Shown here piece after piece: positions 5,229 to 55,393 of a DNA stretch of 64,000 nt (its first letter is position 1; the number at the start of each line of letters is the position of its first letter). The stretch is taken from the IMG/VR virus record IMGVR_UViG_3300020577_007013; one strand, written 5' to 3'. A model generated the notes under the pieces. That model made no database searches and had not been told where the DNA came from. It saw nothing but the letters and a program-made list of their open reading frames with translations. Source of the stretch: a virus. Taxonomy: Duplodnaviria; Caudoviricetes. The position numbers and the translations under genes were made by a program.

Positions 5229-5627
5229 TTAGTTCAGTATGTCCAAAAGTTTCTCTCTATATCTGTTGTCTCTTTTCATGTAGAATGGACTTATCTCTAT
5301 GGCTCTGAATCCTTCAGGAAGTTCAAAGTCATACTCTACTAAGTCAAGATCTTTCTTTTTCTTGAGAATCAGTTGTATGAATTCCTCTTCCTCAATGCCT
5401 TCGTAGTTATTTGTGGAAGTGACAAGAAAAGTTGACTTATCTTCTGTAGTGAAAATGGTATTGTTTTGGTAGAAATCTCCAAATCCTATGTTCTGTCTAA
5501 ATCTCGTTGCATAGAAAAAGAGTTTAGGATTATCTCTGAATTTGAACTTAAGACATGAGCAGTCAGCAATTGATCCTTGATATCTTCTTACATCTATACA
5601 TTGAACAAATCCAGAAAGGTCACGCAT
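5229..5627 (-). CDS. Hypothetical protein with the shared C-terminal tag
   Basis: 132 aa; ends RYREKLLDILN. Confidence 0.7.
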   Translation of the reverse strand: MRDLSGFVQCIDVRRYQGSIADCSCLKFKFRDNPKLFFYATRFRQNIGFGDFYQNNTIFTTEDKSTFLVTSTNNYEGIEEEEFIQLILKKKKDLDLVEYDFELPEGFRAIEISPFYMKRDNRYREKLLDILN

Positions 5628-6081
5628 CTTTTACCAACTCCATGACTTTATGATGGTAAGAAATTGGAAGAAGCAATTTGTTGATAGGAAAAATCTGAAA
5701 TCCTTGAGACTCAATCTCCTTGTCAAGATTCTTTGCTCCTCTCATATAAGGATCTTTGATAATGGAAGCAACTTTTGTAAAGTCTGTAAAGCTGACATGA
5801 CTGGAAATAAAGATTCCTTCTTTGGTTACTCCCACTGAAGTGACTGAGATTTTGAGAGAAGATCCTAATGTGTCAAATGGTTCGCAGATCACAAGATAGT
5901 TTTTCAATTGTCTGAAGTCTGGATGATTGACAGGTTGATCTGTAAAAGAGTATCTCCCAAAATCAACTGCAAACTCCTTGAATTTATTGTCTGTTTGAAA
6001 TTCTTTGGATTGAAAATGATTCGGGAAAAAATACTTCTCCAGTACTTTTTCAAGAATGTCAAGTACTAGAGTTGGGTTCAT
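5620..6081 (-). CDS. Hypothetical protein with the shared C-terminal tag
   Basis: 153 aa; ends SYHHKVMELVKDA. Confidence 0.7.
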   Translation of the reverse strand: MNPTLVLDILEKVLEKYFFPNHFQSKEFQTDNKFKEFAVDFGRYSFTDQPVNHPDFRQLKNYLVICEPFDTLGSSLKISVTSVGVTKEGIFISSHVSFTDFTKVASIIKDPYMRGAKNLDKEIESQGFQIFPINKLLLPISYHHKVMELVKDA

Positions 6082-8361: not shown

Positions 8362-8574
8362 TCAGATCTCTGAAACTATTTGTCGAATTTTCTCTTTATA
8401 GAGAACTTCGGTGCTCGTCTCTTCCTTAGTTCTGACTATGGTGACTTTAGGCCATTCATAAGAGAGGCTTCCTCTATTGATACTAGAGGCTCCGATTCTG
8501 ACTATTTTCAATACGTTTTCAGGCATTATCTGAAAGTTAGATTTAATGAATTCTTCTGAGAACATATTCCTCAT
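8362..8574 (-). CDS. Mini-protein: copy of MCP residues ~75-114 plus C-terminal tag
   Basis: 22/40 identical to the MCP at 41577-43067. Confidence 0.85.
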   Translation of the reverse strand: MRNMFSEEFIKSNFQIMPENVLKIVRIGASSINRGSLSYEWPKVTIVRTKEETSTEVLYKEKIRQIVSEI

Positions 8575-8711
8575 TTCTCGTCGACTATCTTTTTGATTTT
8601 CTCTTTAAAATCATTTTCTACTTTGCTAGGTTTTTTCTCTTTAGGATCCAGACTATCATTGTCATTAGCCTTAATCCATTTCATAAAGTCTACGAATGTG
8701 TTAAGCCTCAT
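8571..8711 (-). CDS. 46-aa mini-protein with C-terminal tag (not in ORF track)
   Basis: MRLNTFVDFMKWIKANDNDSLDPKEKKPSKVENDFKEKIKKIVDEK; overlaps both neighbours. Confidence 0.75.
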   Translation of the reverse strand: MRLNTFVDFMKWIKANDNDSLDPKEKKPSKVENDFKEKIKKIVDEK

Positions 8712-8949
8712 TCAAAATTTCTTTGACCTTTTCTTTATAAGTGGATTCTACTGCAGAGACCGAAACCGGAGAAGAATAGACTCTGTCAATGAAGTATATC
8801 GCATCGTCAGGAGCTACCATCGGCCATTCAGTAATCAATGACTTAGCTACTAAATGAGTAGAATAGATTCTACCATTTTTATTTGATTTCTTCAAGAATC
8901 TCCTTGAGTTTGTCACAGTAAACTTTCTTATGAGCTTCTCTTGTGTCAT
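8701..8949 (-). CDS. Mini-protein: copy of MCP residues 108-129 plus tag (likely TTG start at 8895)
   Basis: TEWPMVAPDDAIYFIDRVYSSP is 16/22 identical to the MCP; AAGGAG precedes the TTG at 8895. Confidence 0.85.
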   Translation of the reverse strand: MTQEKLIRKFTVTNSRRFLKKSNKNGRIYSTHLVAKSLITEWPMVAPDDAIYFIDRVYSSPVSVSAVESTYKEKVKEILNEA

Positions 8950-9082
8950 TTGTAAGAGTGACTTCAGCCATAGTAGTATAAGAGTATCCTATACTATTGA
9001 CTTTTCCCATCTTGACACCTCCGTAGAACATTTCAAATTGTCCTGAACTCAGGTCTAGAAATCCGTGAGAACTACTTGACAA
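8879..9082 (-). CDS. Mini-protein: copy of MCP residues 279-293 plus tag
   Basis: NSIGYSYTTMAEVTL vs NILGYSYTRMAEMML (10/15). Confidence 0.8.
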   Translation of the reverse strand: MSSSSHGFLDLSSGQFEMFYGGVKMGKVNSIGYSYTTMAEVTLTNDTREAHKKVYCDKLKEILEEIK

Positions 9083-9284
9083 TGTCTTCTACCTTCTTTA
9101 CATATTCTTTTTCAAGTTCGGTTTTTTCTTTGATCTCACCTTGAACCCATTCCATAGTATATAGCTCCATGGCTTTCTGAACATGTGGATTATTGAAATA
9201 TAAATATTGGCTCTCTAAAAGTTCAGCGGCTTTTCTAGCTTTACTGTCATCTAGGAAATATTTCTTGATCTTGTCAATCCACAT
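9072..9284 (-). CDS. Mini-protein: copy of MCP residues 55-73 plus tag
   Basis: SKARKAAELLESQYLYFNN vs SRARNTALALENQERYLKN (9/19). Confidence 0.75.
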   Translation of the reverse strand: MWIDKIKKYFLDDSKARKAAELLESQYLYFNNPHVQKAMELYTMEWVQGEIKEKTELEKEYVKKVEDIVK

Positions 9285-9522
9285 CTTCGATAATTTTCTC
9301 TATTTCATCCTTGTAGTTAGTTTTCATTTTTGGATCTAACTTAACTCTTGGTTGTGGATATTGTCTCATGAATCCTGTGCAATCTATCCAGTCATCGAAG
9401 ATAAGTTGCATCTCAGATCTAGTGACTCCACCAAAGTCCATGCTATTATTGATCGAGACTATTCCACCGATCTTTCGACCATTCTGATCGAACACTCCTC
9501 CATCTCTGAGTTCAATTATCAT
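9274..9522 (-). CDS. Mini-protein with C-terminal tag
   Basis: 82 aa; ends NYKDEIEKIIEDVD. Confidence 0.75.
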   Translation of the reverse strand: MIIELRDGGVFDQNGRKIGGIVSINNSMDFGGVTRSEMQLIFDDWIDCTGFMRQYPQPRVKLDPKMKTNYKDEIEKIIEDVD

Positions 9523-9685
9523 CTAACATGTCCAAAAGCTTTTGCTTCTGTTCTTCTTCTTGAAGTTTTCTATTGAGTCGCTTTAGATTTTTGACTTCAT
9601 CCATTTGATGAATCAGCTCATTGACCTTTTCTAAATAGTCGGAGTCGCCTTCATTGTCAGACTTTGAGAATTTACTTGTCCTCAT
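9512..9685 (-). CDS. 57-aa mini-protein with tag (not in ORF track)
   Basis: MRTSKFSKSDNEGDSDYLEKVNELIHQMDEVKNLKRLNRKLQEEEQKQKLLDMLDDN; overlaps both neighbours. Confidence 0.7.
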   Translation of the reverse strand: MRTSKFSKSDNEGDSDYLEKVNELIHQMDEVKNLKRLNRKLQEEEQKQKLLDMLDDN

Positions 9686-10163
9686 AGGTCTCTTCTGTGT
9701 CGATTTTTAGTTCAGTCATTCCACTAGGCTTTCCATCTAACATCATTGTTGGAGGACTTATAAAAGGTAGCTGAGTTATTGGAAGATAAGGTGCATGAAT
9801 GTAGCCTTCAGTTAATTCAGAAAGTTCCATGACTTCAGGCTCTTTCTTTTTATTCTTGAAATTTGACATAAGAGCTTTGACATCCAGCTCTCCGTCTTTA
9901 TTGAAAATTTCTTTCTTTTTGTATTCTCTCTTAAAGAGATCTTTGAATTTTTCCCAAAGAGACTTTTTACGTGGAGAGTAATGCTTAAGTTTTCCGTACA
10001 TTCTGAAGAAGTCATCAGTCATTAATTCTTCATGAGTCTTCTCTTTTCTTTTCCAGAGTTTTTTCTGGAGTTTTTTCCAAAAAGACTTAGGCTTAGGTTC
10101 TACATACTGAAGACCAGGTTCTCCTAAATCTATGTAAGCTTTTATTTTCGAAATTTCAGACAC
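9672..10163 (-). CDS. Array protein with two amphipathic repeats and a gp23-type GY.HAPY.P motif
   Basis: KSFWKKLQKKLW and KSLWEKFKDLF; EGYIHAPYLPI. Confidence 0.75.
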   Translation of the reverse strand: MSEISKIKAYIDLGEPGLQYVEPKPKSFWKKLQKKLWKRKEKTHEELMTDDFFRMYGKLKHYSPRKKSLWEKFKDLFKREYKKKEIFNKDGELDVKALMSNFKNKKKEPEVMELSELTEGYIHAPYLPITQLPFISPPTMMLDGKPSGMTELKIDTEETYEDK

Positions 10164-10396
10164 TAAAAAAGATCCTTGATTTTTTGCTTGTACGAAGTCA
10201 ACAATTCAGTTGGATTATAATAGAGAGGCATTGATAGATTTTTAAGCCACTCAATTACTCTCTTGTCTCTTTCTCTTTGTCTAAGCTTATGTTCTTCAGC
10301 TATAGCATTTACGAGCATAAGCTCTATGTCTCCTATCTTAGAGAATGGACTTGAGTCTACCAACATAGTCATCCTTAACTTTACTTTTTCTTTCAT
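10163..10396 (-). CDS. Mini-protein: copy of MCP residues ~298-320 plus tag
   Basis: IGDIELMLVNAIAEEHKLR vs LGNVEDMLVRAVGDEHALR (10/19). Confidence 0.8.
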   Translation of the reverse strand: MKEKVKLRMTMLVDSSPFSKIGDIELMLVNAIAEEHKLRQRERDKRVIEWLKNLSMPLYYNPTELLTSYKQKIKDLF

Positions 10397-10529
10397 CTTC
10401 TACTACAGTTACAAAGCCATAGCCGATAGGGTCTTCATCAAAGAAATTCTTAGGAACTCCGGTAACTTTTGCTACCAGGTCGTAGAGTTCTCTGATCTTC
10501 TCATCTGTAAGTGATTCGTCTTTATTCAA
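10338..10529 (-). CDS. Mini-protein: portal-like segment plus tag (TTG start overlapping the VWA stop)
   Basis: LYDLVAKVTGVPKNFFD vs portal LLNALVVSTGLPRNLLD. Confidence 0.7.
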   Translation of the reverse strand: MNKDESLTDEKIRELYDLVAKVTGVPKNFFDEDPIGYGFVTVVEDERKSKVKDDYVGRLKSIL

Positions 10530-11935
10530 ATGATTGACCTGAAAGCTAACTTCGCTTGTGAAAGATCTTCGATATTTCCTGTATCCATGAAAGACAAAGA
10601 CTCTGAAAGTTTGTTGCAATTTTCAATGTTACCCATATCTTCCAAGAATACGAAGTGGAATTTCTTTCCTTGTACTCTATGCTTAATAAGTTCATTCATG
10701 GTAGGGATTCTGATATCCTCTGTACCGTCTGTTACCATAATGATGTCCGACTTATCAAGACCGTCTACTTCATTCTTGTCAATGTCCTTCACAGCATAAG
10801 TGAGAGCCATGTCCATGTCAGTACCACCATCTGGATGTGTATTGAGAATGAAGTCAAGAAATGTATTCCAATGAGCTCTTCCTTTTAGAACGAACAAGCT
10901 TCCTAAACGTCCTTCAAACCATCTGCAATAGAATGTCGTTCCGTCTTTCATGGCTTTCTTCGCTAAAGCGATTGCCACTGCTTTAATGAACATTTGACGA
11001 TTGTTTTCATGAGTGGATCCTGAACGATCTAACAAAGCATAGAGACATTGTTTAAGATCTTTTCTCTCTTTGTATTTCATGACTCTCAATGATTTGGTCA
11101 TGATCTTACGGTCAAGAACATCATCAATTGTAACTTCGAACTTGACTGCCTTGCTTACATCGTTCATTTTCTTCATCTTAGAATAGTGAAGATTGGAAGA
11201 AATGTTTTCAGTCTCGTAGAGTTTTCCTCTCTTCGATTGACTGAAGAATGATGTCTCCAGATTTTTAGCGATCTCAAAAATGGAAGCATTTTCATTAGAG
11301 AGAAGTTGCTGAACCATTTGCTTGATCTTGAGCTTCTTGTCCAAGATCTCTTTATAGGTCCTATCAAAGTGACCCATATCTTTTGTTGAACCTGTATTTT
11401 CGGTTTTACCGTCATCTTCAGGAACATCGTATGAGTAGTTCATTATGTGCTCGAATAAGAATCCGAATGAAGAGAAGATCTTGGATACATTTTGTCCAGT
11501 TGATCCTCCACCCATACCACCGTTAGGCTGACGACCAGCTTTTTGATTTTCAATGATAGCTGAGAAGATCTGACAAACGAAGTCAAATTTCTCCTCTAAA
11601 GATAGAGACTTGGATTCAATGTACTGCTCAACAATATCAGACTCAGCAAAATGAATAATGTCCATTTTGAGTTTGAACATCTGAGCTTCAGTGTGCTCAA
11701 TATTATTGACTTCACCTTTTTTGTATCTGTCGATCGCATTTCTTGAAATCTCCAGATCTGATGACATATACTTGAAACAATTTGTCTTCCCTTGAGCTAT
11801 GAGACAAAGTGTATCTTCAAGAACCTCTTTTGGAAGTGCTGAAAGAGAAGGGTACTTAGCGTACCCCTTGTTCACCATGTCGGTATAGAATGTAGGGAGA
11901 TCTATCTTTATGAATCTCATTTTACTTCTTATCAT
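10526..11935 (-). CDS. VWA-domain protein (ViaA/CoxE-like)
   Basis: MIDAS LLDRSGST, GGTD, MVTDG. Confidence 0.88.
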   Translation of the reverse strand: MIRSKMRFIKIDLPTFYTDMVNKGYAKYPSLSALPKEVLEDTLCLIAQGKTNCFKYMSSDLEISRNAIDRYKKGEVNNIEHTEAQMFKLKMDIIHFAESDIVEQYIESKSLSLEEKFDFVCQIFSAIIENQKAGRQPNGGMGGGSTGQNVSKIFSSFGFLFEHIMNYSYDVPEDDGKTENTGSTKDMGHFDRTYKEILDKKLKIKQMVQQLLSNENASIFEIAKNLETSFFSQSKRGKLYETENISSNLHYSKMKKMNDVSKAVKFEVTIDDVLDRKIMTKSLRVMKYKERKDLKQCLYALLDRSGSTHENNRQMFIKAVAIALAKKAMKDGTTFYCRWFEGRLGSLFVLKGRAHWNTFLDFILNTHPDGGTDMDMALTYAVKDIDKNEVDGLDKSDIIMVTDGTEDIRIPTMNELIKHRVQGKKFHFVFLEDMGNIENCNKLSESLSFMDTGNIEDLSQAKLAFRSII

Positions 11936-13094
11936 CCATTGGGAAGATCTCGTCTTCTGAAAGTCCAGATTGTGAGACCTTATCTTCGATCAATTTCTTA
12001 AGATCTTTTGCTTTCTCAAGAACTGATTTTTGGCAATTAGCTTGAGTCCATTCAGAGATTTTATCTTTGATATGTGAAGCGAGAGCTGCAAGCATTCTTG
12101 TTCTCTCAAGCTTATCATCATATTTGAGAATCTTAGTGTGAAGAGCTTTCTCAAATTTCATGAGCTCCATTCCCATTGCCATTGATTTTTCTGATTTGTC
12201 AAAGACAGCATCGAATTTGTCTGAGTTCTTGATGTCTCCACCATTCACAAGTGCATATTTAATGCTCTTGAGATTCTCAACTTCAATTGTCTCTTGACCT
12301 TTGAGGAATGCATCAGCTTTAGCGACAAGCAACATTTTATTTTTCTTTCTCGGACTGATACCGATACTTGTCTGCTGTGTGTACTCATCAAGAATTGCAT
12401 CGAACATGATGAGAAGCATATCAGAGAATTGAGGCTTGTATTTCTCAAATTCTTCGTGAAGAATCTTCAGATCATGGAAAGCAAATTTCGGATATTCTTC
12501 GTCAGAGATTCCTCTTAAGAAGTTGGAGAACATTTTGATTCTGCTTTCTTGTTTTACCAAGTCAGCAACTTCAGATGTGAAGAGAATACGATCATAAACA
12601 GCTCGAAGTTCTTTCTCCTCCTCTCTCTCTTGATTCGTTGTCATGATAGCTGTGAGTAGCTTTGCTGGAATTGTTCTGCTCTGTCTCGTAGATGATCTCT
12701 CGTTCAAGATCTCATTTGCAGAAACGAGAAGCTCTTCAGAAGCATTAAAGAATTCGTCCAATCTCGCAAAGTCTGTTGTGAGAAGTGAACCTTCAATGTT
12801 ATGAACGATGTTACCTTTCTTGAATTCCTCAATTGACTGAGGACCCATGATGTATTGGTCGTCCATGAATCTTGTGAACTGTTGTTCAAAGACTGTAGCT
12901 CCTGTAAAGCCTTTAAGAATCTTCTGACTTAGAAGTGTCTTCGCTGTACCTGGAAGTCCTTTTAGAAGCACATGCTCCTTAATGAGAATTGCCAATTTTA
13001 TTTGGTTTGTCTCATACTCTCTTTCAGAGAAAAAGTCCTCCATCTTTTTGAAATAATCTTGATAGTCTTGTTTAAGTTTTTTTACTTCCTTCAC
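11922..13094 (-). CDS. MoxR-family AAA+ ATPase (RavA-like)
   Basis: EHVLLKGLPGTAKT, LDEFFNA, ILNER, AVYDRI, ISPR. Confidence 0.9.
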   Translation of the reverse strand: MKEVKKLKQDYQDYFKKMEDFFSEREYETNQIKLAILIKEHVLLKGLPGTAKTLLSQKILKGFTGATVFEQQFTRFMDDQYIMGPQSIEEFKKGNIVHNIEGSLLTTDFARLDEFFNASEELLVSANEILNERSSTRQSRTIPAKLLTAIMTTNQEREEEKELRAVYDRILFTSEVADLVKQESRIKMFSNFLRGISDEEYPKFAFHDLKILHEEFEKYKPQFSDMLLIMFDAILDEYTQQTSIGISPRKKNKMLLVAKADAFLKGQETIEVENLKSIKYALVNGGDIKNSDKFDAVFDKSEKSMAMGMELMKFEKALHTKILKYDDKLERTRMLAALASHIKDKISEWTQANCQKSVLEKAKDLKKLIEDKVSQSGLSEDEIFPMDDKK

Positions 13095-14269: not shown

Positions 14270-14578
14270 TCAATCGTCGATAATTATATGGCCGCTTTCA
14301 TTTACTTCAATTAATTCGTGATCCCTAGACACCGAAAAATAAGTGCAAGCGTCTTTGATATATTCCTTGGCTTTTTCGAAGTCTTTAAATTTAACTTCGA
14401 AAGTCCATCCTCCACTGACATAGCTAAAGCTTTTCCATTTACCCCCTTCTTTTTTATAAGGAACATAGTCGTACCCTTCTTTCTCTATTTTGTAATGGAC
14501 AGGAAGAGACTCTCTAGGAGTTTTCAAGACTTCTGGAAATCTTTCCTTAAGTGGTCTCTTAGATAAAGACACTGCCAT
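14270..14578 (-). CDS. Hypothetical protein
   Basis: 102-aa ORF. Confidence 0.6.
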   Translation of the reverse strand: MAVSLSKRPLKERFPEVLKTPRESLPVHYKIEKEGYDYVPYKKEGGKWKSFSYVSGGWTFEVKFKDFEKAKEYIKDACTYFSVSRDHELIEVNESGHIIIDD

Positions 14579-14945
14579 AACGTTCCTTCATAAAGTTCGA
14601 CCATAGACTTATCATATTGTCTCTTCCGTTAATGTTTGATGAATGGACTGTGAATCGTTCTACTTTACTGAGATCAATTTTTCCGTCAAGATCCATTTCG
14701 ACGAGTTTATTTAGGAAGTCTTTTCCTGTCTTCGACTCAAGTCCTAGGTCATGGTCAAGAGTCATCATTCTAGGAACTCCTAATTTAAGAATGAGCTCTA
14801 TAGCTTCATCATAAGTTCTAGCAATTTTCCAATTCCACTCTTCTCTCTTATACTTCTTCTGTCCTTTACAAGACAGTTCAGAAATAGCATTGGGAAATAT
14901 GTAATCGAGTTCCCTAATGTCGTCTAGGAAAAGATCATAGAGCAT
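14559..14945 (-). CDS. Cyclic-phosphate-processing receiver-domain protein
   Basis: LFLDDIR, ARTYDEA, LDHDLG..KTG, VHSSN..G. Confidence 0.8.
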   Translation of the reverse strand: MLYDLFLDDIRELDYIFPNAISELSCKGQKKYKREEWNWKIARTYDEAIELILKLGVPRMMTLDHDLGLESKTGKDFLNKLVEMDLDGKIDLSKVERFTVHSSNINGRDNMISLWSNFMKERYGSVFI

Positions 14946-16131
14946 GATTTGATATATTAAAGATTTCCTTAAGCTCTTTCAAAAACTTAGGATCTTTACA
15001 GAACTCTTTAGAAGGTTCATCAGATATCTTAGCGACAGGTTGTCCATTAATTTCTGACAACTTGATTACCATTTGAGGATTCTTTTTTCCGATATTGCAA
15101 GTCAGATGAGTACCTATTCCGAAGACGATTTTGATTTGACCATGAAATTTTTCATAGATCTCTGATGCTTTCTCAAATGTAATTGAGTCACTGAAGATTG
15201 CAGTTTTTGTCATTGGATCAATTTTCGATTTTTTGAGTTCCTGAATTAGAAAATCACACCATTCAATAGGATCACCGCTATCATGTCTGAATCCTGAAAA
15301 ATCAAGCAGTTGGGTTGAGAATTCTATCAATTGTCTAGAATTTATCGTGTCGGTCAAGGCTATATGATATTGTTCAGGATAGACTGAACTCCACATAGAG
15401 AAAGCTTCGTCTTGGAAGTATTGAATTGGATTCTGTCTTAAAACCTGAAATGCTTGGATGTACTCATGGGCCATAGTTCCAACTGCTCTAAGAGAAAATT
15501 TCTTAGCAAAGAAAACATTGCTCGTTCCAGTAAAATTCTCTGGACAATTTGTGAGAATCGCTCTTAAGATTGCTTCATGATGCCTAAATGATGCTCGTCT
15601 TCTAGTTCCGTAGTCTGAAAATTTAATTTCCTTAGCTTCCTTCTTTATGAAGGAAAGACCGTCCACTGTCTTATGGCAGAGTTCCAGTTCTTCTACCATG
15701 CTGAGACCGAACTCTCTTTCGAAATAGACTTCATTAAGGATGGATAGAATCGGTATCTCGAAGTAGGTGATCTCTTTCCAATTTCCTGAAATTTTGATTT
15801 GAAGCTTCCCATCCTGTTCATAGACATTTACATTTGATCTCTTCAACTTCAGAGTGGAGAGAAACTTAAGATAGTCTCTACTGAAGAGTCTAAAGGAATC
15901 CAAGTATTCGATGTCTTCTTTTGTGAAAGTGAGAGTACAAAGATGGTTAATTTCTTTTTCAATATCGTCTTTCCATTCTAGAAGATCGACTTCTGAACGA
16001 CAGATTAATTCGAAAGAAGCTGAGATATTCTCCCCTTTGAATCTCTCGAAGACGCAATTCCCCATTGTAAATTTGTAGAGATCCGTATCAAGTAGACTAT
16101 TGATGACCATAAATTTGCTCCGACATTTCAA
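14935..16131 (-). CDS. pncB: Nicotinate phosphoribosyltransferase
   Basis: SLLDTDLYKFTM, DYGTRRR, GTSNV, GTMAHE, RHDSGDP, FGIGT, VAKISD. Confidence 0.93.
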   Translation of the reverse strand: MKCRSKFMVINSLLDTDLYKFTMGNCVFERFKGENISASFELICRSEVDLLEWKDDIEKEINHLCTLTFTKEDIEYLDSFRLFSRDYLKFLSTLKLKRSNVNVYEQDGKLQIKISGNWKEITYFEIPILSILNEVYFEREFGLSMVEELELCHKTVDGLSFIKKEAKEIKFSDYGTRRRASFRHHEAILRAILTNCPENFTGTSNVFFAKKFSLRAVGTMAHEYIQAFQVLRQNPIQYFQDEAFSMWSSVYPEQYHIALTDTINSRQLIEFSTQLLDFSGFRHDSGDPIEWCDFLIQELKKSKIDPMTKTAIFSDSITFEKASEIYEKFHGQIKIVFGIGTHLTCNIGKKNPQMVIKLSEINGQPVAKISDEPSKEFCKDPKFLKELKEIFNISNHAL

Positions 16132-30779: not shown

Positions 30780-32975
30780 TTAGATATCGACTTTCACTTG
30801 ACGAAGATTGAATTCGACAAAGATGTCCTTATTTCCAACTTTTGATTTAAGAACACAATCTTCTCTCGAAGTGAATTCCTTAAACCATTTCTTAGCCATA
30901 ATGACTGAGAATTTTTGACGTTGGAGATCTGAACGAAGTTTGTAAAGTTCAGTCTTGGTTTCTTTGAGTTGCTCTTCCAACCAAGCTTCTTTTACTTTCT
31001 TCGATTTCTCTTTATCGAACTTTTTCTTGTAACCAGCATAGAGTTCTGCCATGATAAGCTCTCTTTCTGTTGGAGCTTTCTTGGCTTCCTCAAGCTTCTT
31101 GACAAGATCTTTGACTGTTGGTTTAGAGAATCCTTTTACAGCAACTTTAAACTCAGTAGCCATGTAGTAATCTGTCGGAGCTGCTGCTTTAGACTCAGGA
31201 GAGTAGAGTCCTTTCTTGATTCCATGTTCTTCAAGAAACTTGACTTGATCTGCTGTCAATGATTCAGACTTTTCTTCTTTGTCTTTCAGACCGTTCAGAA
31301 GATATTTGAATAGTGACTGCTTTTGTTCAAGAGCTGTCTCCTTGTAGACCATATCTGCAATAGGCTTGGCAGAGTCTATCCCTTCTGACATTTTACGATT
31401 TGAAACCGGAATCGATTTAAGTCGCAGAATGAAGATATCTTTCTTCAGTTGAGGACTCTTGAATTTCTCCAGCAACTCTTTAGGAGCCAATTGCTTGAGT
31501 TTCTTCTCAGTCTCTTTACTGACTGACACATAGAGTTCATCTATGTTGGGATATCCGTCCTTGATAAGAGAATAGTTCCGATACACTTTTGTCGGATATT
31601 CTTTTTGGAATCCGAGTTTCTTGAAACCTTCTTTTAATGTGACTGTTCCCGTCAGTTCTGCTCTTACAGACAGATTGAGTTTGGAATCATTCCAAGCCAA
31701 TGAGTTGAAGTAGCATAATTGATTCTGATCTGCCTTGAACTCTGGATATTTCTTATCAATCTCAGTTCCTTTTGAGATCTTGTTGTAAGTCCAACCGTCA
31801 TGACGAGGATAGAAACCAGCGTCATCGTCATTGATAAGGATATCGACCAAGTCAAGGAGACAGAATACATCGTCTTTCGGAACGTAATTCTGAACTTGAC
31901 CTTCTTTGAGACGTTCTGCCGGTGAGAAGAGAGCTTCTCTGATCTCATTCTCTACTCGACCATACTCATCATTTGTTCTTGCATTGTTGAGCTGGTCAAT
32001 GAAATATTTGTCTCCGAGATATCCCAGAACATCGATTGCCTTATCAGCTTTTGTTCTCATTGAGAGAATGTTCGCTGCAGCATAGAGACCTTTGATGAGG
32101 TACTCTTTCTTATTTGTGGATGAGCCTTTTGAAAGGTCACCTACAGAATCGACTTCCTTTGATCCGGCTGGTTTTTTCTCAGTGAGATAGAACAGAACAT
32201 TCTTGTTCTTTTTTGATGGGTTGAAGGTAACTGAGCTACCGTCTACATCATAAGCAATGATGTTCTTTCCTGAGATTGAGAATGGATAGAGAGCTGTCTT
32301 GTCAATCTCTACCTGAATTCTTCCATTTGAGTCTCTCGATGTCTCAACGAATTGAGTGAGAGTCTCATAAGAATTGTTCACATCTCCTAAATGGAGAAAT
32401 GAACCACCAATAGCAGACGACATTTGAGTGAGCAGCTCTCTGTTGTAATAGTTTCCTGATCCAACAAAGGCTGAATAGTAAAGCTTACCTTTCAGCTCGC
32501 CTAAAGCTGTAAAGATAGCCTTTATCTCTTTGTTGTAGTCCATCACACATGGCTGACCGTCAGTAAAGAAGTACAATACGAAATTGTCTTCTTTATAAGA
32601 AGGATCTTTCACCAATGTGTTGATCTTCTGGAGAATTTCTGAGAAGCAGGTTGTTCCCAAAATTCTTTTGTTCTGATCGAGAATGGTTGTGAGAGTCGCT
32701 TTGTTTTTGTCATTGACTTCAAATGCTTTCAACATGAAGTCGCAGTAGCCTTCTCCTGAAAACCATCCGATGGAATTCTTTTCATTTTCTCTTAATGAAA
32801 GAGAAAACTTTTTTACGTCTTCCACTACTGAGTTGATGTAGCCAGACATTGAGCCTGATCTGTCAATCACAGTAATGATGTGAAGTTGTTTGTCGAGTTG
32901 TTTCTCCTGTTCCTTATTTAATTCGACGTCTTTAGAGACGAGATACAGGTCGTCCCTGATCTTTATGTGTTCCAT
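30780..32975 (-). CDS. Large VWA-domain protein
   Basis: VIDRSGSM, GTTCF, FFTDG. Confidence 0.85.
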   Translation of the reverse strand: MEHIKIRDDLYLVSKDVELNKEQEKQLDKQLHIITVIDRSGSMSGYINSVVEDVKKFSLSLRENEKNSIGWFSGEGYCDFMLKAFEVNDKNKATLTTILDQNKRILGTTCFSEILQKINTLVKDPSYKEDNFVLYFFTDGQPCVMDYNKEIKAIFTALGELKGKLYYSAFVGSGNYYNRELLTQMSSAIGGSFLHLGDVNNSYETLTQFVETSRDSNGRIQVEIDKTALYPFSISGKNIIAYDVDGSSVTFNPSKKNKNVLFYLTEKKPAGSKEVDSVGDLSKGSSTNKKEYLIKGLYAAANILSMRTKADKAIDVLGYLGDKYFIDQLNNARTNDEYGRVENEIREALFSPAERLKEGQVQNYVPKDDVFCLLDLVDILINDDDAGFYPRHDGWTYNKISKGTEIDKKYPEFKADQNQLCYFNSLAWNDSKLNLSVRAELTGTVTLKEGFKKLGFQKEYPTKVYRNYSLIKDGYPNIDELYVSVSKETEKKLKQLAPKELLEKFKSPQLKKDIFILRLKSIPVSNRKMSEGIDSAKPIADMVYKETALEQKQSLFKYLLNGLKDKEEKSESLTADQVKFLEEHGIKKGLYSPESKAAAPTDYYMATEFKVAVKGFSKPTVKDLVKKLEEAKKAPTERELIMAELYAGYKKKFDKEKSKKVKEAWLEEQLKETKTELYKLRSDLQRQKFSVIMAKKWFKEFTSREDCVLKSKVGNKDIFVEFNLRQVKVDI

Positions 32976-46212: not shown

Positions 46213-47623
46213 ATTTCATAAGTCTCTTCCAATTTTTGGAAGCTTTTTGTAAGCCTACACCAATAGTTAAAGCACGAACAGTGATTGTAGTGTTTGGTCT
46301 AGACTTTGCTTGAAGTTTAAGATGTTCGATAATTTCAGTCTTGAGTTTAGAAGCAACTTCAGGCATAATCTTATCTTTGAGTCTCTCGAGACGTTCAAGC
46401 ATTTCTTCACCAGTTAAGTCGAATTCTATGACCACTGATCTTGATTTTAAAGCACCTTGAGTCTTTTCATTGATAGTAGATGTTGAGAGATTGCTAATAA
46501 AGATAACTCGACCTGTGTATTCAAACTCATTAGGAACATCTTCAGGCATTCTTTCAGAATCCCAAGTGATCCAACGAGATTCTTTAGTGTCAAGAGCTGC
46601 TTTAAAAAGGTTGACTGAAGTCTTGTCATAGAAGATTGAGTCACAATCGTCATAGACGAGAATTCCTTCATTATTCTCAAACATTGCAAGATAAAGTCCT
46701 TTTGCAGTGGAGCTTCCTTTTTTGATTTTATAGTCAACTCCATGTTCTTTAAGAGTTTCTTCAACTGTATGTGATTTACCGGCACCACCAGTTCCCGTAA
46801 CGATAAGAGAGTTAATATGACCGTCGGCGATTGCTTCAGTCAATTCTACAAGATCATCAAATTTTTCATCGATTTCTTTTGCAGATCTTGCAGGTCTTCC
46901 AGAAATAGAAGCATTAACTTTATCTTGAGCTGCTGTAGGAATATCCTGATCTGCTCTCATAATATCTTTGGAATTTTTCCTAGGAATAAGAGAAAGTGCA
47001 CCAGTTGAATTTAGAATATTTTTGAAAGACGACTTGAACCTAGAAGATTTCATAGGTTCGATTTTTCCTTTCTTAGCAAATTTTACATATTCATCATAGA
47101 GATTAGGAATAAAGCTCTTATTGAGAATGAGTTTAAGAATTCTGTCTTCGTCTTCCTTAGGAATTGATTTAAGCCAAATTCCGAGCTCTTTAATTTCAGG
47201 AATTGAAGTCTTAGCCAATGGATCGTAAAGATCTTCAAGAGTAAAAGGATGGTCAGTTGCTTCATTAAGCTCATCAGTAGGGATATGTTTTCCTTTAAGA
47301 ACTTCGACAACAAGAGAAGCTATTTCAGATTCCGATTTATCTGAACAATCTACAGTGAAATGAGGTTGTGGATTAGGATTTACCCAAATATCAATTGATT
47401 GGAGAGACGCATATCCGTCTTGTTTCGAAAAATTGAAACGGATCATCTCCTCACCACTTCCTACAAGATATCGAACTCCGTAGTAGATATTAGAGGAATC
47501 GTGTTTTTTTGAGAATTCCTCAACTACCTGTGTCGATGTTAGGCTTTTGTTGAAGATTTTGTCGATTTCCAGTACCACTGACTGGATTATTTTTTGGTGG
47601 CTTTGAAGACTGAACTTTGACAT
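46202..47623 (-). CDS. AAA-type ATPase
   Basis: GTGGAGKS, VYDDCD, IFISN, ALKSR. Confidence 0.8.
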   Translation of the reverse strand: MSKFSLQSHQKIIQSVVLEIDKIFNKSLTSTQVVEEFSKKHDSSNIYYGVRYLVGSGEEMIRFNFSKQDGYASLQSIDIWVNPNPQPHFTVDCSDKSESEIASLVVEVLKGKHIPTDELNEATDHPFTLEDLYDPLAKTSIPEIKELGIWLKSIPKEDEDRILKLILNKSFIPNLYDEYVKFAKKGKIEPMKSSRFKSSFKNILNSTGALSLIPRKNSKDIMRADQDIPTAAQDKVNASISGRPARSAKEIDEKFDDLVELTEAIADGHINSLIVTGTGGAGKSHTVEETLKEHGVDYKIKKGSSTAKGLYLAMFENNEGILVYDDCDSIFYDKTSVNLFKAALDTKESRWITWDSERMPEDVPNEFEYTGRVIFISNLSTSTINEKTQGALKSRSVVIEFDLTGEEMLERLERLKDKIMPEVASKLKTEIIEHLKLQAKSRPNTTITVRALTIGVGLQKASKNWKRLMKYVN

Positions 47624-50703: not shown

Positions 50704-52653
50704 TTAGTCCTCTTTTGATTCAGATTCTTCTGATAATTTTTGCTTTCCTTCTTTTTTCCATTCCACTAAAAGTGAAACGTCGAAGTCTTGACTTCCTATA
50801 CTTGAAGAATAGAAGTGTCTACCTCTGAATGTCCCTTCTCTAAATGATTTTTTTGTCTCTTTATAAATTTCGCTTTCGACTTGTTCTTTGAGATTCATTT
50901 TCTTTTTCATCGGTCTTTTTCTAGAAGTCGATTCTTTTGCTTCTCCAGTTTCAGGAGCCGGAGTTTCCTCAGTAGGAGGCTGTTCTTCTTCACCAGTCGG
51001 TGCTGGCTCTTCATTTGATAAGAGATCTAATGGGGAAGATTCCCCACCACCTCCACCAACTTCAGGAGCAGGAGCTTCTTCAGTAGAAGCTGCTTGTTGT
51101 CCAGGAAGTTGTCCCGTCAGTTGTCCAGAAGCCATTGTTAAGTCAACCCATTTCTCTATATCAGAAGGAGGATATGGAAGAATTTTTGTATAGACTTGAG
51201 TAACAACGTCTTTGTTAAGATTTTCTCCTTGAGCGACCAACTTAGCTTGAAGTGAGTCTAAGATTGAATTTGCCAAAGTAACAAGATCTGATTGCGATCC
51301 GATGAGCTCTCTATCAGATTGACTTTCAGGATAAGGCATTGTAAGTCTAAAGTCAATATCCTTTAAAGGAAATCTTCCAGACTGAACAAGATGTATCTTG
51401 ACAAGTTGTGTAATTTGTTCAAGAAGACAAGACTGAATGTGAAAGATCTGTCTTTTAAATGGAACATATTGTTGAATAAGTGAGATACCACTATTTCCAA
51501 ATGTTCCGTTATTGGGATCCAATAAGTTTCTCGGAAGACCTGTTGAGACAACCAAAGCATTGAGTAAAAGTTCCAAGTCACCTATATCACTAAGATCAAG
51601 TTGTGGAACAATTTGCTCATAAGTAAAGAGACCATCGATAGTTATAATTCTCTCACCGACCGCTATACCTTCTTTCTTTGTTTCTCTTAATCCTGAGTTG
51701 TCAAACTCTCTAATGAACTCCAAAACTTTTTCAATCTTATCTGTAGGAGACATTACGTTAGGAAGAGAAATTTTATAAAGATCAATCGGAAATTTTGCTC
51801 CTCTACCTACTGACTGAAGAGTCATCGCAGCATCATATTGTCTGAAAGGAGCAACACTGTGAATAAAAACAGGAATTCCGAATGGGTAGAATGGAGTCTT
51901 AGAAGTAAAGTTTCTGAAGTGAAGAAATCTCCAAGGAGGAAGAACGAAGTCTCCTACTTCGAATCCGAAAAGATATGACTTAAAATAAGTAGAGTAGTCT
52001 TCCTTAAGATCATCTATACTGTTGACTAAGTGTCTTAGCTTTTCATTTTTTGAAAGCATTGAATTGAGAGCTGAATTGACTTTATTAATTTCCTTCGATA
52101 CTTGATGAGGAGTAAACTCTAGTCTTGATTTTATATCGAATACATCTACAGGAAGGACTGTATCGATTCCAGCATCATTAAGAGTAGTCACCCATCCAGC
52201 ATTTCCATATTGAATAATGTTAAGAGCTGTTGACCTCAAATATTTTTCTATTCCTGATTTAGAGATGAACTCAAGAATAAAGTCTCTTAAGAAAGGATCT
52301 TGAGCTTCGACACCGATAATTTGTGAATTTGTGTCAGCTTGAACTGTCTCATCTGCCATGAGATTCATCGCTCTCGAAAGAAATGGACTATTGTAATAGA
52401 TCATGTCCATATCCATGAAGAGTTCTTTCCTATTTTGGAAAGATTCTCTGTCATCATGACAATCAGAGATCCAGTATTTTAGAAGAGTGTCTACTTGTTT
52501 TGGAAACTGTTCTCTAACACTATTATAGAGTCCTTCTCTATCCTTAACCAACTTTGTTGGAAATGGGACTTTTTTATCCTTATCGATTCCGATTTTGAAT
52601 AATCGCCTGAAAAGCGACACTTTTTCATTGGAAATTTGATTTTCTTCAGCCAT
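50704..52653 (-). CDS. Portal protein (T4 gp20-like) with an acidic Pro-rich tail
   Basis: AMNLMADE, YGN, WRFLHFR, PFG, DIGDLE...TGLP. Confidence 0.88.
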   Translation of the reverse strand: MAEENQISNEKVSLFRRLFKIGIDKDKKVPFPTKLVKDREGLYNSVREQFPKQVDTLLKYWISDCHDDRESFQNRKELFMDMDMIYYNSPFLSRAMNLMADETVQADTNSQIIGVEAQDPFLRDFILEFISKSGIEKYLRSTALNIIQYGNAGWVTTLNDAGIDTVLPVDVFDIKSRLEFTPHQVSKEINKVNSALNSMLSKNEKLRHLVNSIDDLKEDYSTYFKSYLFGFEVGDFVLPPWRFLHFRNFTSKTPFYPFGIPVFIHSVAPFRQYDAAMTLQSVGRGAKFPIDLYKISLPNVMSPTDKIEKVLEFIREFDNSGLRETKKEGIAVGERIITIDGLFTYEQIVPQLDLSDIGDLELLLNALVVSTGLPRNLLDPNNGTFGNSGISLIQQYVPFKRQIFHIQSCLLEQITQLVKIHLVQSGRFPLKDIDFRLTMPYPESQSDRELIGSQSDLVTLANSILDSLQAKLVAQGENLNKDVVTQVYTKILPYPPSDIEKWVDLTMASGQLTGQLPGQQAASTEEAPAPEVGGGGGESSPLDLLSNEEPAPTGEEEQPPTEETPAPETGEAKESTSRKRPMKKKMNLKEQVESEIYKETKKSFREGTFRGRHFYSSSIGSQDFDVSLLVEWKKEGKQKLSEESESKED

Positions 52654-54394: not shown

Positions 54395-55393
54395 TTAGAC
54401 TGTCTTGATGTACTTTTCTACTCGTGAAATTAGAGAGGCTTTATTCTTCAATACTGAGGGAGTGACTTTCATCTTCATGCCGATTGTCGAAGCATACTGA
54501 GCAATTTCCTTTGCTTTCATTCCCGTTAATTCTTCTTTTGTTTTGAATTTCGAAGTTGTAGGGGTGGTTCTCTTGACTACTGAAGAGGAGATCTGCTTTT
54601 CATCTCTATAGACTCCCACAGATTTGTATTGACAGACTCTCATTTTCATGTGATTATCGTATTCAGGAACAGAGACCACATCTTTAGGGTGAACGAGAAC
54701 TTCTATATGGAGAGTTCCTGGATAAGAGAATGAATAAGAGAAAGATGCGACATGAAGACCATTCGAACAATCGACTGTTCTATCTGGATTGACTTTCTTT
54801 CTCTCCATCTTGACAATCTTTCCTTTTGAATTGTCGAAAGTTCCTGTATAGCCATCCACCCATTTGTGGTCGTAAATTTTACCAGTCTTGATCAGATCGT
54901 CAACTTCTGACTGTGACATAAAAGAATGTTTGTCATTCTTGTCTCTCAGAACTTGAACTTTCTTATATGCTAAGAAGCGACCGTCTTCTGTAATTGGATG
55001 ATGATTCTTCTCAAGAAAAGTATACAGCTCTTCAATCGAGATTTTTGAAGGATTCAATTTGAGATTGTTCCAGAAGTTGATAAGTGGTTGGAGCTTTTCA
55101 TCTTCTTTAGAGAACTCCATTATCTTAATTTCTAAAGCTCTAGGAACAGGTTTGTTCTGACCTTTAAGATAAAATTTTCCGTCTTTCTCTCTGATATGCT
55201 CAGCATATTTTTTAGCTACTTCTTTCACAGGAAAGACTAGAGAGTTCAACGGATTGAGATTCTTCTCTTTAATAAGAGAGATAAGCCCTTCATAGAGTTC
55301 ATTGTCTCTATGAATCGTTTTTACCTTAGAACCTAAGGTAAAGGTAATTCCTTCCTTAGTTATTATGTACTTGATTTTTCCTTTGTTTTGCAT
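54395..55393 (-). CDS. rIIB: rIIB-like protein
   Basis: NPS..SIEELYTFL, ITEDGRFLAYKKV, CSNGLH, VHPKDVVSVP, KMRVCQY. Confidence 0.92.
   Translation of the reverse strand: MQNKGKIKYIITKEGITFTLGSKVKTIHRDNELYEGLISLIKEKNLNPLNSLVFPVKEVAKKYAEHIREKDGKFYLKGQNKPVPRALEIKIMEFSKEDEKLQPLINFWNNLKLNPSKISIEELYTFLEKNHHPITEDGRFLAYKKVQVLRDKNDKHSFMSQSEVDDLIKTGKIYDHKWVDGYTGTFDNSKGKIVKMERKKVNPDRTVDCSNGLHVASFSYSFSYPGTLHIEVLVHPKDVVSVPEYDNHMKMRVCQYKSVGVYRDEKQISSSVVKRTTPTTSKFKTKEELTGMKAKEIAQYASTIGMKMKVTPSVLKNKASLISRVEKYIKTV

Follow-up and report, generated by a model that had tools for sequence, protein, structure and literature searches.

Positions 8362–13094 of a 64,000-nucleotide (nt) stretch of phage DNA (IMG/VR record IMGVR_UViG_3300020577_007013; the whole stretch is referred to below as the window) encode a MoxR-class AAA+ ATPase, a VWA-domain protein and, packed behind them, ten mini-proteins, m1–m10, most of which end in a similar short helix, referred to below as the tag. 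The source is an uncultured T4-like jumbo phage represented by a 253,865-bp contig, and nearly all genes of the window lie on the minus strand. This arrangement raises the question of whether the ATPase–VWA pair reads the tag and uses the mini-proteins as adaptors, as the original prediction for this locus had proposed. We favour, at about even weight, a reading in which a lineage-specific, fast-evolving block of tagged genes has been added to an old, self-sufficient pair on the 3′ side of VWA. The pair is the leading candidate for a reader of the tag, a role that we consider doubtful even when all modes of docking are taken together. The identity of the pair, the packing of the genes and the capsid-like heads of several mini-proteins agree with the adaptor proposal; against a reading of the tag by the pair stand pairs without an array, tags off the chain and a tag in which no acidic residue is invariant.

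The ATPase gene (11922..13094, minus strand) encodes a RavA-like protein of 390 amino acids (aa). Its best Pfam family was PF20030 (bpMoxR; E-value 2.8e-26, 92.3 bits, cut-off 27), AAA_5 (PF07728) was matched at 2.4e-15 (57.2 bits, cut-off 22), and RavA structures matched residues 18–276 at an E-value of 5.8e-17. The motifs are intact (Walker A, GLPGTAKT; Walker B, LDEF; sensor-1, TTNQ), and their key residues are invariant in five orthologues. In GenBank phages, MoxR was matched at 24–27% only. The MoxR orthologues (L003, L006 and L026; window 11922–11960) also share a C-terminal acidic tail of the form ...[DE][DE][DE][IL]F plus a few residues, in which the Phe is invariant.

The VWA gene (10526..11935, minus strand) encodes 469 aa from its first ATG, with the ATG at 11920 as the probable conserved start. 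Foldseek assigned the VWA fold with a probability of 1.0, and ANTXR1, CLCA1 and NorD of the NorQD complex (9qhe_G) were among the matches; the structure model had a mean pLDDT (predicted local distance difference test) of 55.9, with values of about 60–80 in the C-terminal VWA domain. The MIDAS (metal-ion-dependent adhesion site) is complete, and its residues D303, S305, S307, T372 and D403 are invariant in seven sequences. Neither a Pfam family nor DUF2201_N was matched by this protein, and HExxH was absent from it and from six homologues. The family comprises 329 cluster representatives at E-values of 1e-10 or below, and the VWA gene lies directly downstream of MoxR in the window and in L001, L003, L005–L008, L017 and L026/L027. 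The identification of the two genes as a MoxR AAA+/VWA pair was therefore borne out by the PF20030 and RavA matches on one side and the complete MIDAS on the other. By sequence, the pair appears to be a new, peptidase-less phage subfamily of the MoxR–VWA kind.

The array lies on the minus strand and is numbered downstream from the VWA gene. m1 (10338..10529; 63 aa, TTG start) ends in DDYVGRLKSIL-stop, m2 (10163..10366; 67 aa, or 77 aa from the ATG at 10396) in YKQKIKDLF-stop, m5 (9274..9522; 82 aa) in YKDEIEKIIEDVD-stop, m6 (9072..9284; 70 aa) in YVKKVEDIVK-stop, m7 (8879..9082; 67 aa, TTG start) in YCDKLKEILEEIK-stop, m8 (8701..8895; 64 aa from the TTG at 8895, or 82 aa from the ATG at 8949) in YKEKVKEILNEA-stop, m9 (8571..8711; 46 aa) in FKEKIKKIVDEK-stop and m10 (8362..8574; 70 aa) in YKEKIRQIVSEI-stop. 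m4 (9512..9685; 57 aa) carries an internal copy of the tag, DYLEKVNELI, and a degenerate C-terminal one, KQKLLDMLDDN. m3 (9672..10163; 163 aa, GTG start) is untagged and ends in ...ETYEDK-stop; it had no family match in searches, and its ratio of nonsynonymous to synonymous divergence (dN/dS) was 0.13. The end of m3 resembles a tag cut short where the start of m4 overlaps it (9672–9700). Searches of all mini-proteins against Pfam and PHROGs returned nothing above threshold.

The tag has the consensus Y/F-x-x-K-[IVL]-x-x-[ILM]-[IVLF], followed by zero to four residues and the stop. Its conserved features, namely the Tyr or Phe, the Lys and three aliphatic residues, form a hydrophobic helix face. 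The motif was present in the last 18 residues of 11 of 1,292 open reading frames (ORFs), and 8 of these 11 fell within 8362–10622. Pairwise identity of the tag DNA was 55%, and 91 of 153 identical residue pairs (59%) were specified by different codons. When the window was compared with its relative L004, the tags showed a dN/dS of 0.19 at a synonymous divergence of about 1.2, with no difference from the mini-protein bodies (0.18). Codon usage and substitution rates alike indicate that the shared tag helix is kept by selection on the protein.

These figures stand against the view that the shared 3′ ends matter as nucleic acid, serving as re-initiation sites or as joints for cassette recombination, with the peptide a by-product that has no reader. 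The amphipathic pattern is moreover held through conservative replacements, and tags end genes that have no overlapping successor (m10 and a 132-aa protein described below). In favour of such a view, the m4/m5, m5/m6, m6/m7 and m8/m9 junctions (8571–9522) each overlap by 11 nt in the form ATG/TTG-N6-TRA, so that the next gene starts within the final three or four codons of the tag, and an 11-nt overlap was found at only 2 of 74 other window junctions. Likewise, m6 is missing from L011 and L013, and in L011 (1884–2313) the deletion runs exactly from tag to tag and leaves a hybrid m5 tail, YKDKLKDVINS, at the joint. On balance, we regard a purely nucleic-acid role for the shared ends as very improbable.

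Tags are also found away from the chain. Two larger tagged proteins (5229..6081, minus strand), one of 153 aa ending in YHHKVMELVKDA and one of 132 aa ending in YREKLLDILN, are parted from the array by DUF7873, about 500 nt of non-coding DNA and a DUF559 endonuclease-like gene. This placement weighs against a required partnership of pair and tags. A tag profile run against all window ORFs of at least 100 aa recovered these two known proteins only, and no further tags were found in the 23 kb before the window start on the Logan contig. The putative scaffold protein (43204–43872) ends in ...EIYEDFRDKLKNEST-stop, which is loosely tag-like (F-R-D-K-L-K) and lacks the last two hydrophobic residues; it scored at chance level.

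Comparison with relatives separated the pair from the array. Four related contigs extend far enough upstream to show what precedes the array (L004, L011, L013 and the Logan contig L019–L022), and in each of them the order from VWA to array is retained. Between the window and L004, synonymous divergence (dS) was about 1 in pair and array alike, and dN/dS was 0.04 for MoxR, 0.01 for VWA and about 0.2 for the mini-genes. Amino acid identity dropped from 97–98% in the pair to 43–84% in the mini-genes, exactly at the VWA/m1 border; m4 was the most conserved mini-gene (84%, dN/dS 0.06), and m6 stood at 43%. Recent recombination can be dismissed as the cause of this step, given a dS of about 1 on either side of it. 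In L010 (220–1455), L012 and L014, DUF7873 and the non-coding stretch are missing, and the DUF559 endonuclease-like gene comes straight after the array.

The same pair, lacking a tagged array, was found at nine loci (L001, L003, L005, L006–L008, L017 and L026/L027) that represent at least four lineages, all more distant. There the VWA orthologues are 34–41% identical, and the genes run in the order primase, MoxR, VWA, in some cases a 55-aa gene, a conserved, unassigned protein of about 200 aa, a RuvC-like gene and head genes. Because these nine loci carry the pair without a tagged array, the pair predates the array and works without it. Pair and array, whose co-occurrence across phages the original prediction had offered as its check, stand together in the four close contigs, and the nine distant loci carry the pair alone. 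The protein of about 200 aa follows VWA in all distant relatives (L003 2105–2737; L001 11001–11582; L005 3796–4380; L006 7346–7927) and has the motif ...ARYD-F--Y---MSREITRR...; neither the window nor the preceding 23 kb has a homologue of it. For the role of ancestral partner or client of the pair, it is a better candidate. Searches for further relatives gave little: IMG/VR scans with the single VWA or DUF7873 protein returned no relatives, a metagenome scan with the VWA alignment returned only two loci, both distant, and P0002, at 71% identity, was the sole intermediate VWA relative. GenBank phages, searched at the DNA and protein level, yielded no match when the region, VWA or the capsid protein served as query.

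We then considered whether the packing of the genes bears on function. The original prediction had described the ATPase gene as overlapping the VWA gene, and this depends on the start, because VWA has both an ATG at 11935 and an orthologue-supported ATG at 11920. The MoxR stop is the TAA at 11924–11922, so that the first ATG gives a 14-nt overlap, but the N-terminus shared by orthologues (MRFIKI...) begins at the second, which leaves TAAaATG with a 1-nt spacer. The junction of VWA and m1 was as predicted, the stop (TGA, 10528–10526) and the start (TTG, 10529–10527) sharing TTGA. This TTG is likely to be the start of m1: it is the first same-frame start in L004, again within TTGA, and a gene caller chose the same start on the Logan contig. 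The m1 ORF itself showed a dN/dS of 0.22 and an in-frame indel of 7 codons. That the chain of overlaps continues to 8362 was likewise confirmed, with junctions overlapping by 1–29 nt and starts conserved in L004. In addition to the four 11-nt overlaps, m1/m2 overlap by 29 or 59 nt, m2/m3 by 1 nt (TAGTG), m3/m4 by 14 nt, m7/m8 by 17 nt with the TTG at 8895 or 71 nt with the ATG at 8949 (L004 supports the TTG), and m9/m10 by 4 nt; a 22-nt gap then follows 8362 before DUF7873.

Overlap is common in this genome, however, and therefore says little on function: 32 of the 74 other same-strand junctions in the window overlap, and 49 of the 74 lie within 10 nt. This unbroken run is nevertheless the longest in the window, the runner-up spanning 5 junctions. 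An AAGGAG in front of MoxR was the sole clear Shine–Dalgarno element in the string, and no Shine–Dalgarno-like element was found for VWA, m1, m4, m5, m6 or m10, which fits re-initiation; many unrelated window genes also lack one. A promoter and terminator scan gave sites at chance level only. Coupled expression of the string is plausible on this packing, and to that extent the proposed translational coupling of the pair to the mini-genes stands, but such packing is the usual habit of this genome, and coupling is not in itself evidence that the pair reads the tag.

The original prediction had been specific about the mode of reading: the tags would be ligands of the VWA MIDAS, and the mini-proteins would be swappable adaptors that hand capsid proteins or foreign proheads to the MoxR motor. 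There is precedent for the first part. CbbQ forms a MoxR hexamer, and the MIDAS of CbbO engages an acidic residue of its target, rubisco (PMC4660213); Rea1/midasin, as reviewed, likewise engages its targets through MIDAS and an acidic residue (PMC4660213, PMC7159879). In the phage, the MIDAS is complete and invariant, adjacency of pair and array is kept in close relatives, and most tags have Glu or Asp at +2 or +6. No tag position is always acidic, however, and m1 has no acidic residue within the helix; the tag presents a hydrophobic helix face rather than an extended acidic peptide. The acidic tail of MoxR with its invariant Phe is, on its sequence, a possible alternative ligand for the MIDAS of its partner. 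Furthermore, the pair does without tags in the nine distant loci, and tags occur away from the pair.

Co-folding bore on the same point. VWA (7-row alignment) and m10 (4-row alignment) were folded together in three runs, which gave ipSAE interface scores of 0.51, 0.00 and 0.47 (median 0.47), against 0.01 for the best of three controls. Of 80 solved complexes 58 passed the mark for this score, as did 2 of 110 mismatched pairs; at 0.60 or below it was passed by only 7 of the 80 and by both passing mismatches, so that the result lends weak support to an association. Between runs at least 0% of contacts agreed, the pLDDT of the partner was 32 or more, and the output contained no interface, so that the score holds no pointer to the MIDAS. 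Taken with the capsid-like heads described below, which favour it, the full model of MIDAS ligands and swappable adaptors is in our estimation improbable, and we rate tag reading through the MIDAS as such no higher.

A second mode of docking was suggested by the tail of m1. The last helix of the VWA protein (α7, about residues 458–468) follows the last strand of the fold and is of low confidence in the model, where it is possibly mobile. The C-terminus of the subfamily is conserved as [DE]-Y-x-P-[ED]-F-R-x-[IV]-[IV]-stop, with F465 invariant. The m1 tail, DDYVGRLKSIL, scored 32 and 29 against the DDYVPEFR[ST]IV tails of two distant VWA orthologues, above its scores with its own paralogous tags (24 at most) and with any other of 2,033 protein tails (21 at most). 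Among 275 tails, the m10 and m8 tags likewise found their best matches outside the tags in VWA tails of the form YKPxFRKV[IV]. One short match of this kind suggests that the tag arose by duplication of the 3′ end of the VWA gene, because the m1 tail resembles the last helix of the VWA domain.

The tag could on these grounds be a copy of α7 that docks on VWA by helix exchange, or on MoxR, and so tethers the mini-proteins; such a copy could also switch the MIDAS. In integrin I domains, movement of α7 switches the MIDAS site, which provides an analogy. The conserved VWA tail, its low-confidence helix and the co-fold score are consistent with this mode. On the other side, the likeness spans about 11 residues and reaches only about p = 0.03 by a rough extreme-value estimate after correction for 66 tag-by-tail comparisons, and Lys/Glu-rich amphipathic helices easily look alike. 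With the tag profile, VWA tails scored just 2.4 bits; averaged over all tags they fell in the top 3–6% of the background and not beyond, and AKLAFRSII, the tail of the window's own VWA protein, does not look like a tag. No wider homology of mini-proteins and VWA was detected with a VWA profile run against the mini-proteins or with BLAST against 152 VWA homologues. Docking by helix mimicry is consequently a mode that we consider unlikely. The VWA family also has an internal helix, ...D-x-x-Y-K-E-I-x-x-x-K-L-x-I... (about residues 195–212, window 11300–11390; K201 and I204 invariant), which is loosely tag-like; its profile alignment with the tags was not significant.

The heads of several mini-proteins resemble pieces of the phage head. 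The window contains a T4-like head module with a gp20-like portal, a gp21-like protease and a gp23-family major capsid protein (41577..43067, minus strand), for which 78 homologues were found, many of them with PF07068 (Gp23); the putative portal protein is encoded at 50704–52653. Residues 1–45 of m10 matched capsid residues 71–114 (53% identity, E-value 2.7e-12), and the head of m8 matched capsid residues 106–137 (3.5e-10). The other matches were weaker, namely a short one of m7 to capsid residues 279–293 (0.009) and those of the m2 head to capsid residues 298–326 (0.001) and of the m6 head to residues 58–111 of the putative portal (4e-4). The m10 and m8 heads stand at 50–59% from the phage's own and from foreign gp23 homologues, at about equal distance, and a recent origin by copying, whether of the phage's own capsid gene or of a closely related foreign gene, is thereby rejected. 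The alignments indicate that the heads are old copies of a conserved capsid segment. The capsid link of the original prediction is thus partly upheld, in that m10 and m8, and weakly m7 and m2, carry gp23-like pieces, their part in adaptor delivery being conjectural.

If the tags did plug the mini-proteins into VWA or MoxR, the result would be a programmable remodelling machine with one conserved motor and quickly evolving, swappable heads derived from capsid and portal, whose heads would steer the motor to own or competitor capsid assemblies, or to host sensors that recognize capsid proteins. We think this rather unlikely. MoxR–VWA pairs occur widely, few of their targets are known, and viral ones have been tied only loosely to virion assembly; mini-proteins that were clients or adaptors would make this a rare MoxR system with substrates legible from the genome and would also explain the tag. 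If they are not, the locus warns that, where phage genes are densely packed, partnership cannot be read from overlap and neighbourhood alone, and the pair would be better approached through the companion of about 200 aa in smaller phages.

In the reading that we favour, MoxR and VWA would form an old, self-sufficient and strongly constrained pair of the RavA/ViaA kind, acting as a chaperone-type machine, and this pair would be the fixed couple that other lineages keep between primase and a RuvC-like resolvase, without mini-genes. In the jumbo-phage lineage an accessory block would have grown at the 3′ edge of VWA, made up of small genes with one amphipathic helix and one untagged gene, its gene content differing among close relatives. 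The tag helix was probably born by duplication of the VWA 3′ end, and it most likely serves as a docking label. The whole string is probably a single transcript along which ribosomes probably move from gene to gene by termination–re-initiation; such coupling would set a common timing and dosage, although it is also how this genome usually packs its genes.

Several observations weigh against this separation of pair and block. The order from VWA to array is kept at a synonymous divergence of about 1, and selection may hold the two together. Array-bearing relatives are all close, and no array-bearing phage without the pair was seen, though none was specifically sought. The unbroken overlap run is the longest in the window. 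The modelled association of VWA with m10 is a weak hint of a link, and the likeness of tag and VWA helix could mean a shared binding site and not only a shared origin.

The surroundings of the locus offer other possible partners. A second VWA protein (731 aa, phrog_2426), an AAA ATPase beside the prohead protease gene and a 771-aa GHKL-type ATPase (30780–32975, 46202–47623 and 55356–57671 cover these three) are possible alternative hubs or readers in the same phage. Among the replication genes of the window are those for topoisomerase II subunits, DnaB helicase and NAD-dependent ligase. Immediately upstream of the MoxR block (14559–16131), a gene for nicotinate phosphoribosyltransferase overlaps one for a cREC_REC (cyclic-phosphate processing receiver) protein, and this gene couple may be an NAD-salvage or counter-defence module. 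The 23 kb that precede the window (L020 10614–11693; L021 11898–17482; L020 16250–16534) have a TnpB/IS605 OrfB (Cas12f-like) gene just outside it and, farther out, genes for Thy1 and an AAA protein, a Ter operon (TelA, three TerD, TerC) and a gene for the co-chaperonin Cpn10.

Among known systems, RavA–ViaA of Escherichia coli (PMC3893208) is alike in its RavA-like ATPase, the VWA gene directly next to it and the complete MIDAS. The phage VWA protein differs in that it belongs to no detectable sequence family and its N-terminal helical domain is another one, the phage MoxR showed no LARA-like domain, and the tagged array is present only on the phage side. Viral precedents are the MoxR–VWA pairs of group 2.2 (T4-like) jumbo phages, with a metallopeptidase-vWA protein, and the MoxR p618/VWA pair of Acidianus two-tailed virus, and a role in virion assembly has been proposed for such pairs (PMC7824862; PMC7159879). 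The group 2.2 pair is similarly virus-encoded in a T4-like jumbo phage, whereas the window VWA protein, with neither HExxH nor DUF2201_N, is not of the peptidase-fused form, and its orthologues in smaller relatives sit in a replication/recombination module. The MoxR-vWA-beta-propeller ternary conflict systems (PMC7159879; PF20030) share the bpMoxR family that was the best match here, as well as a MoxR–vWA switch serving variable, fast-evolving modules, but they are cellular defence loci rather than phage loci, and no beta-propeller, VMAP, iSTAND or FtsH-like third component was found among the Pfam-scanned neighbours. CbbQ–CbbO (PMC4660213) and NorQ–NorD (9qhe_G) also combine a MoxR-type ATPase with a partner ending in a VWA domain. 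CbbQ–CbbO differs in that its target is one defined enzyme, which is engaged directly. To our knowledge, no tagged-adaptor family accompanies either of these two systems. Portable address peptides, such as the capsid-targeting sequence of T4 and the cargo-loading peptides of encapsulins, are short peptides common to unrelated proteins. The tag resembles them as a short peptide carried by otherwise unrelated small proteins and kept at the protein level, and it differs from them in being C-terminal and helical, with the motif Y-K-x-K-[IVL]-x-x-[IL]-[IVL], and in that several of its carriers are pieces of the capsid protein itself.

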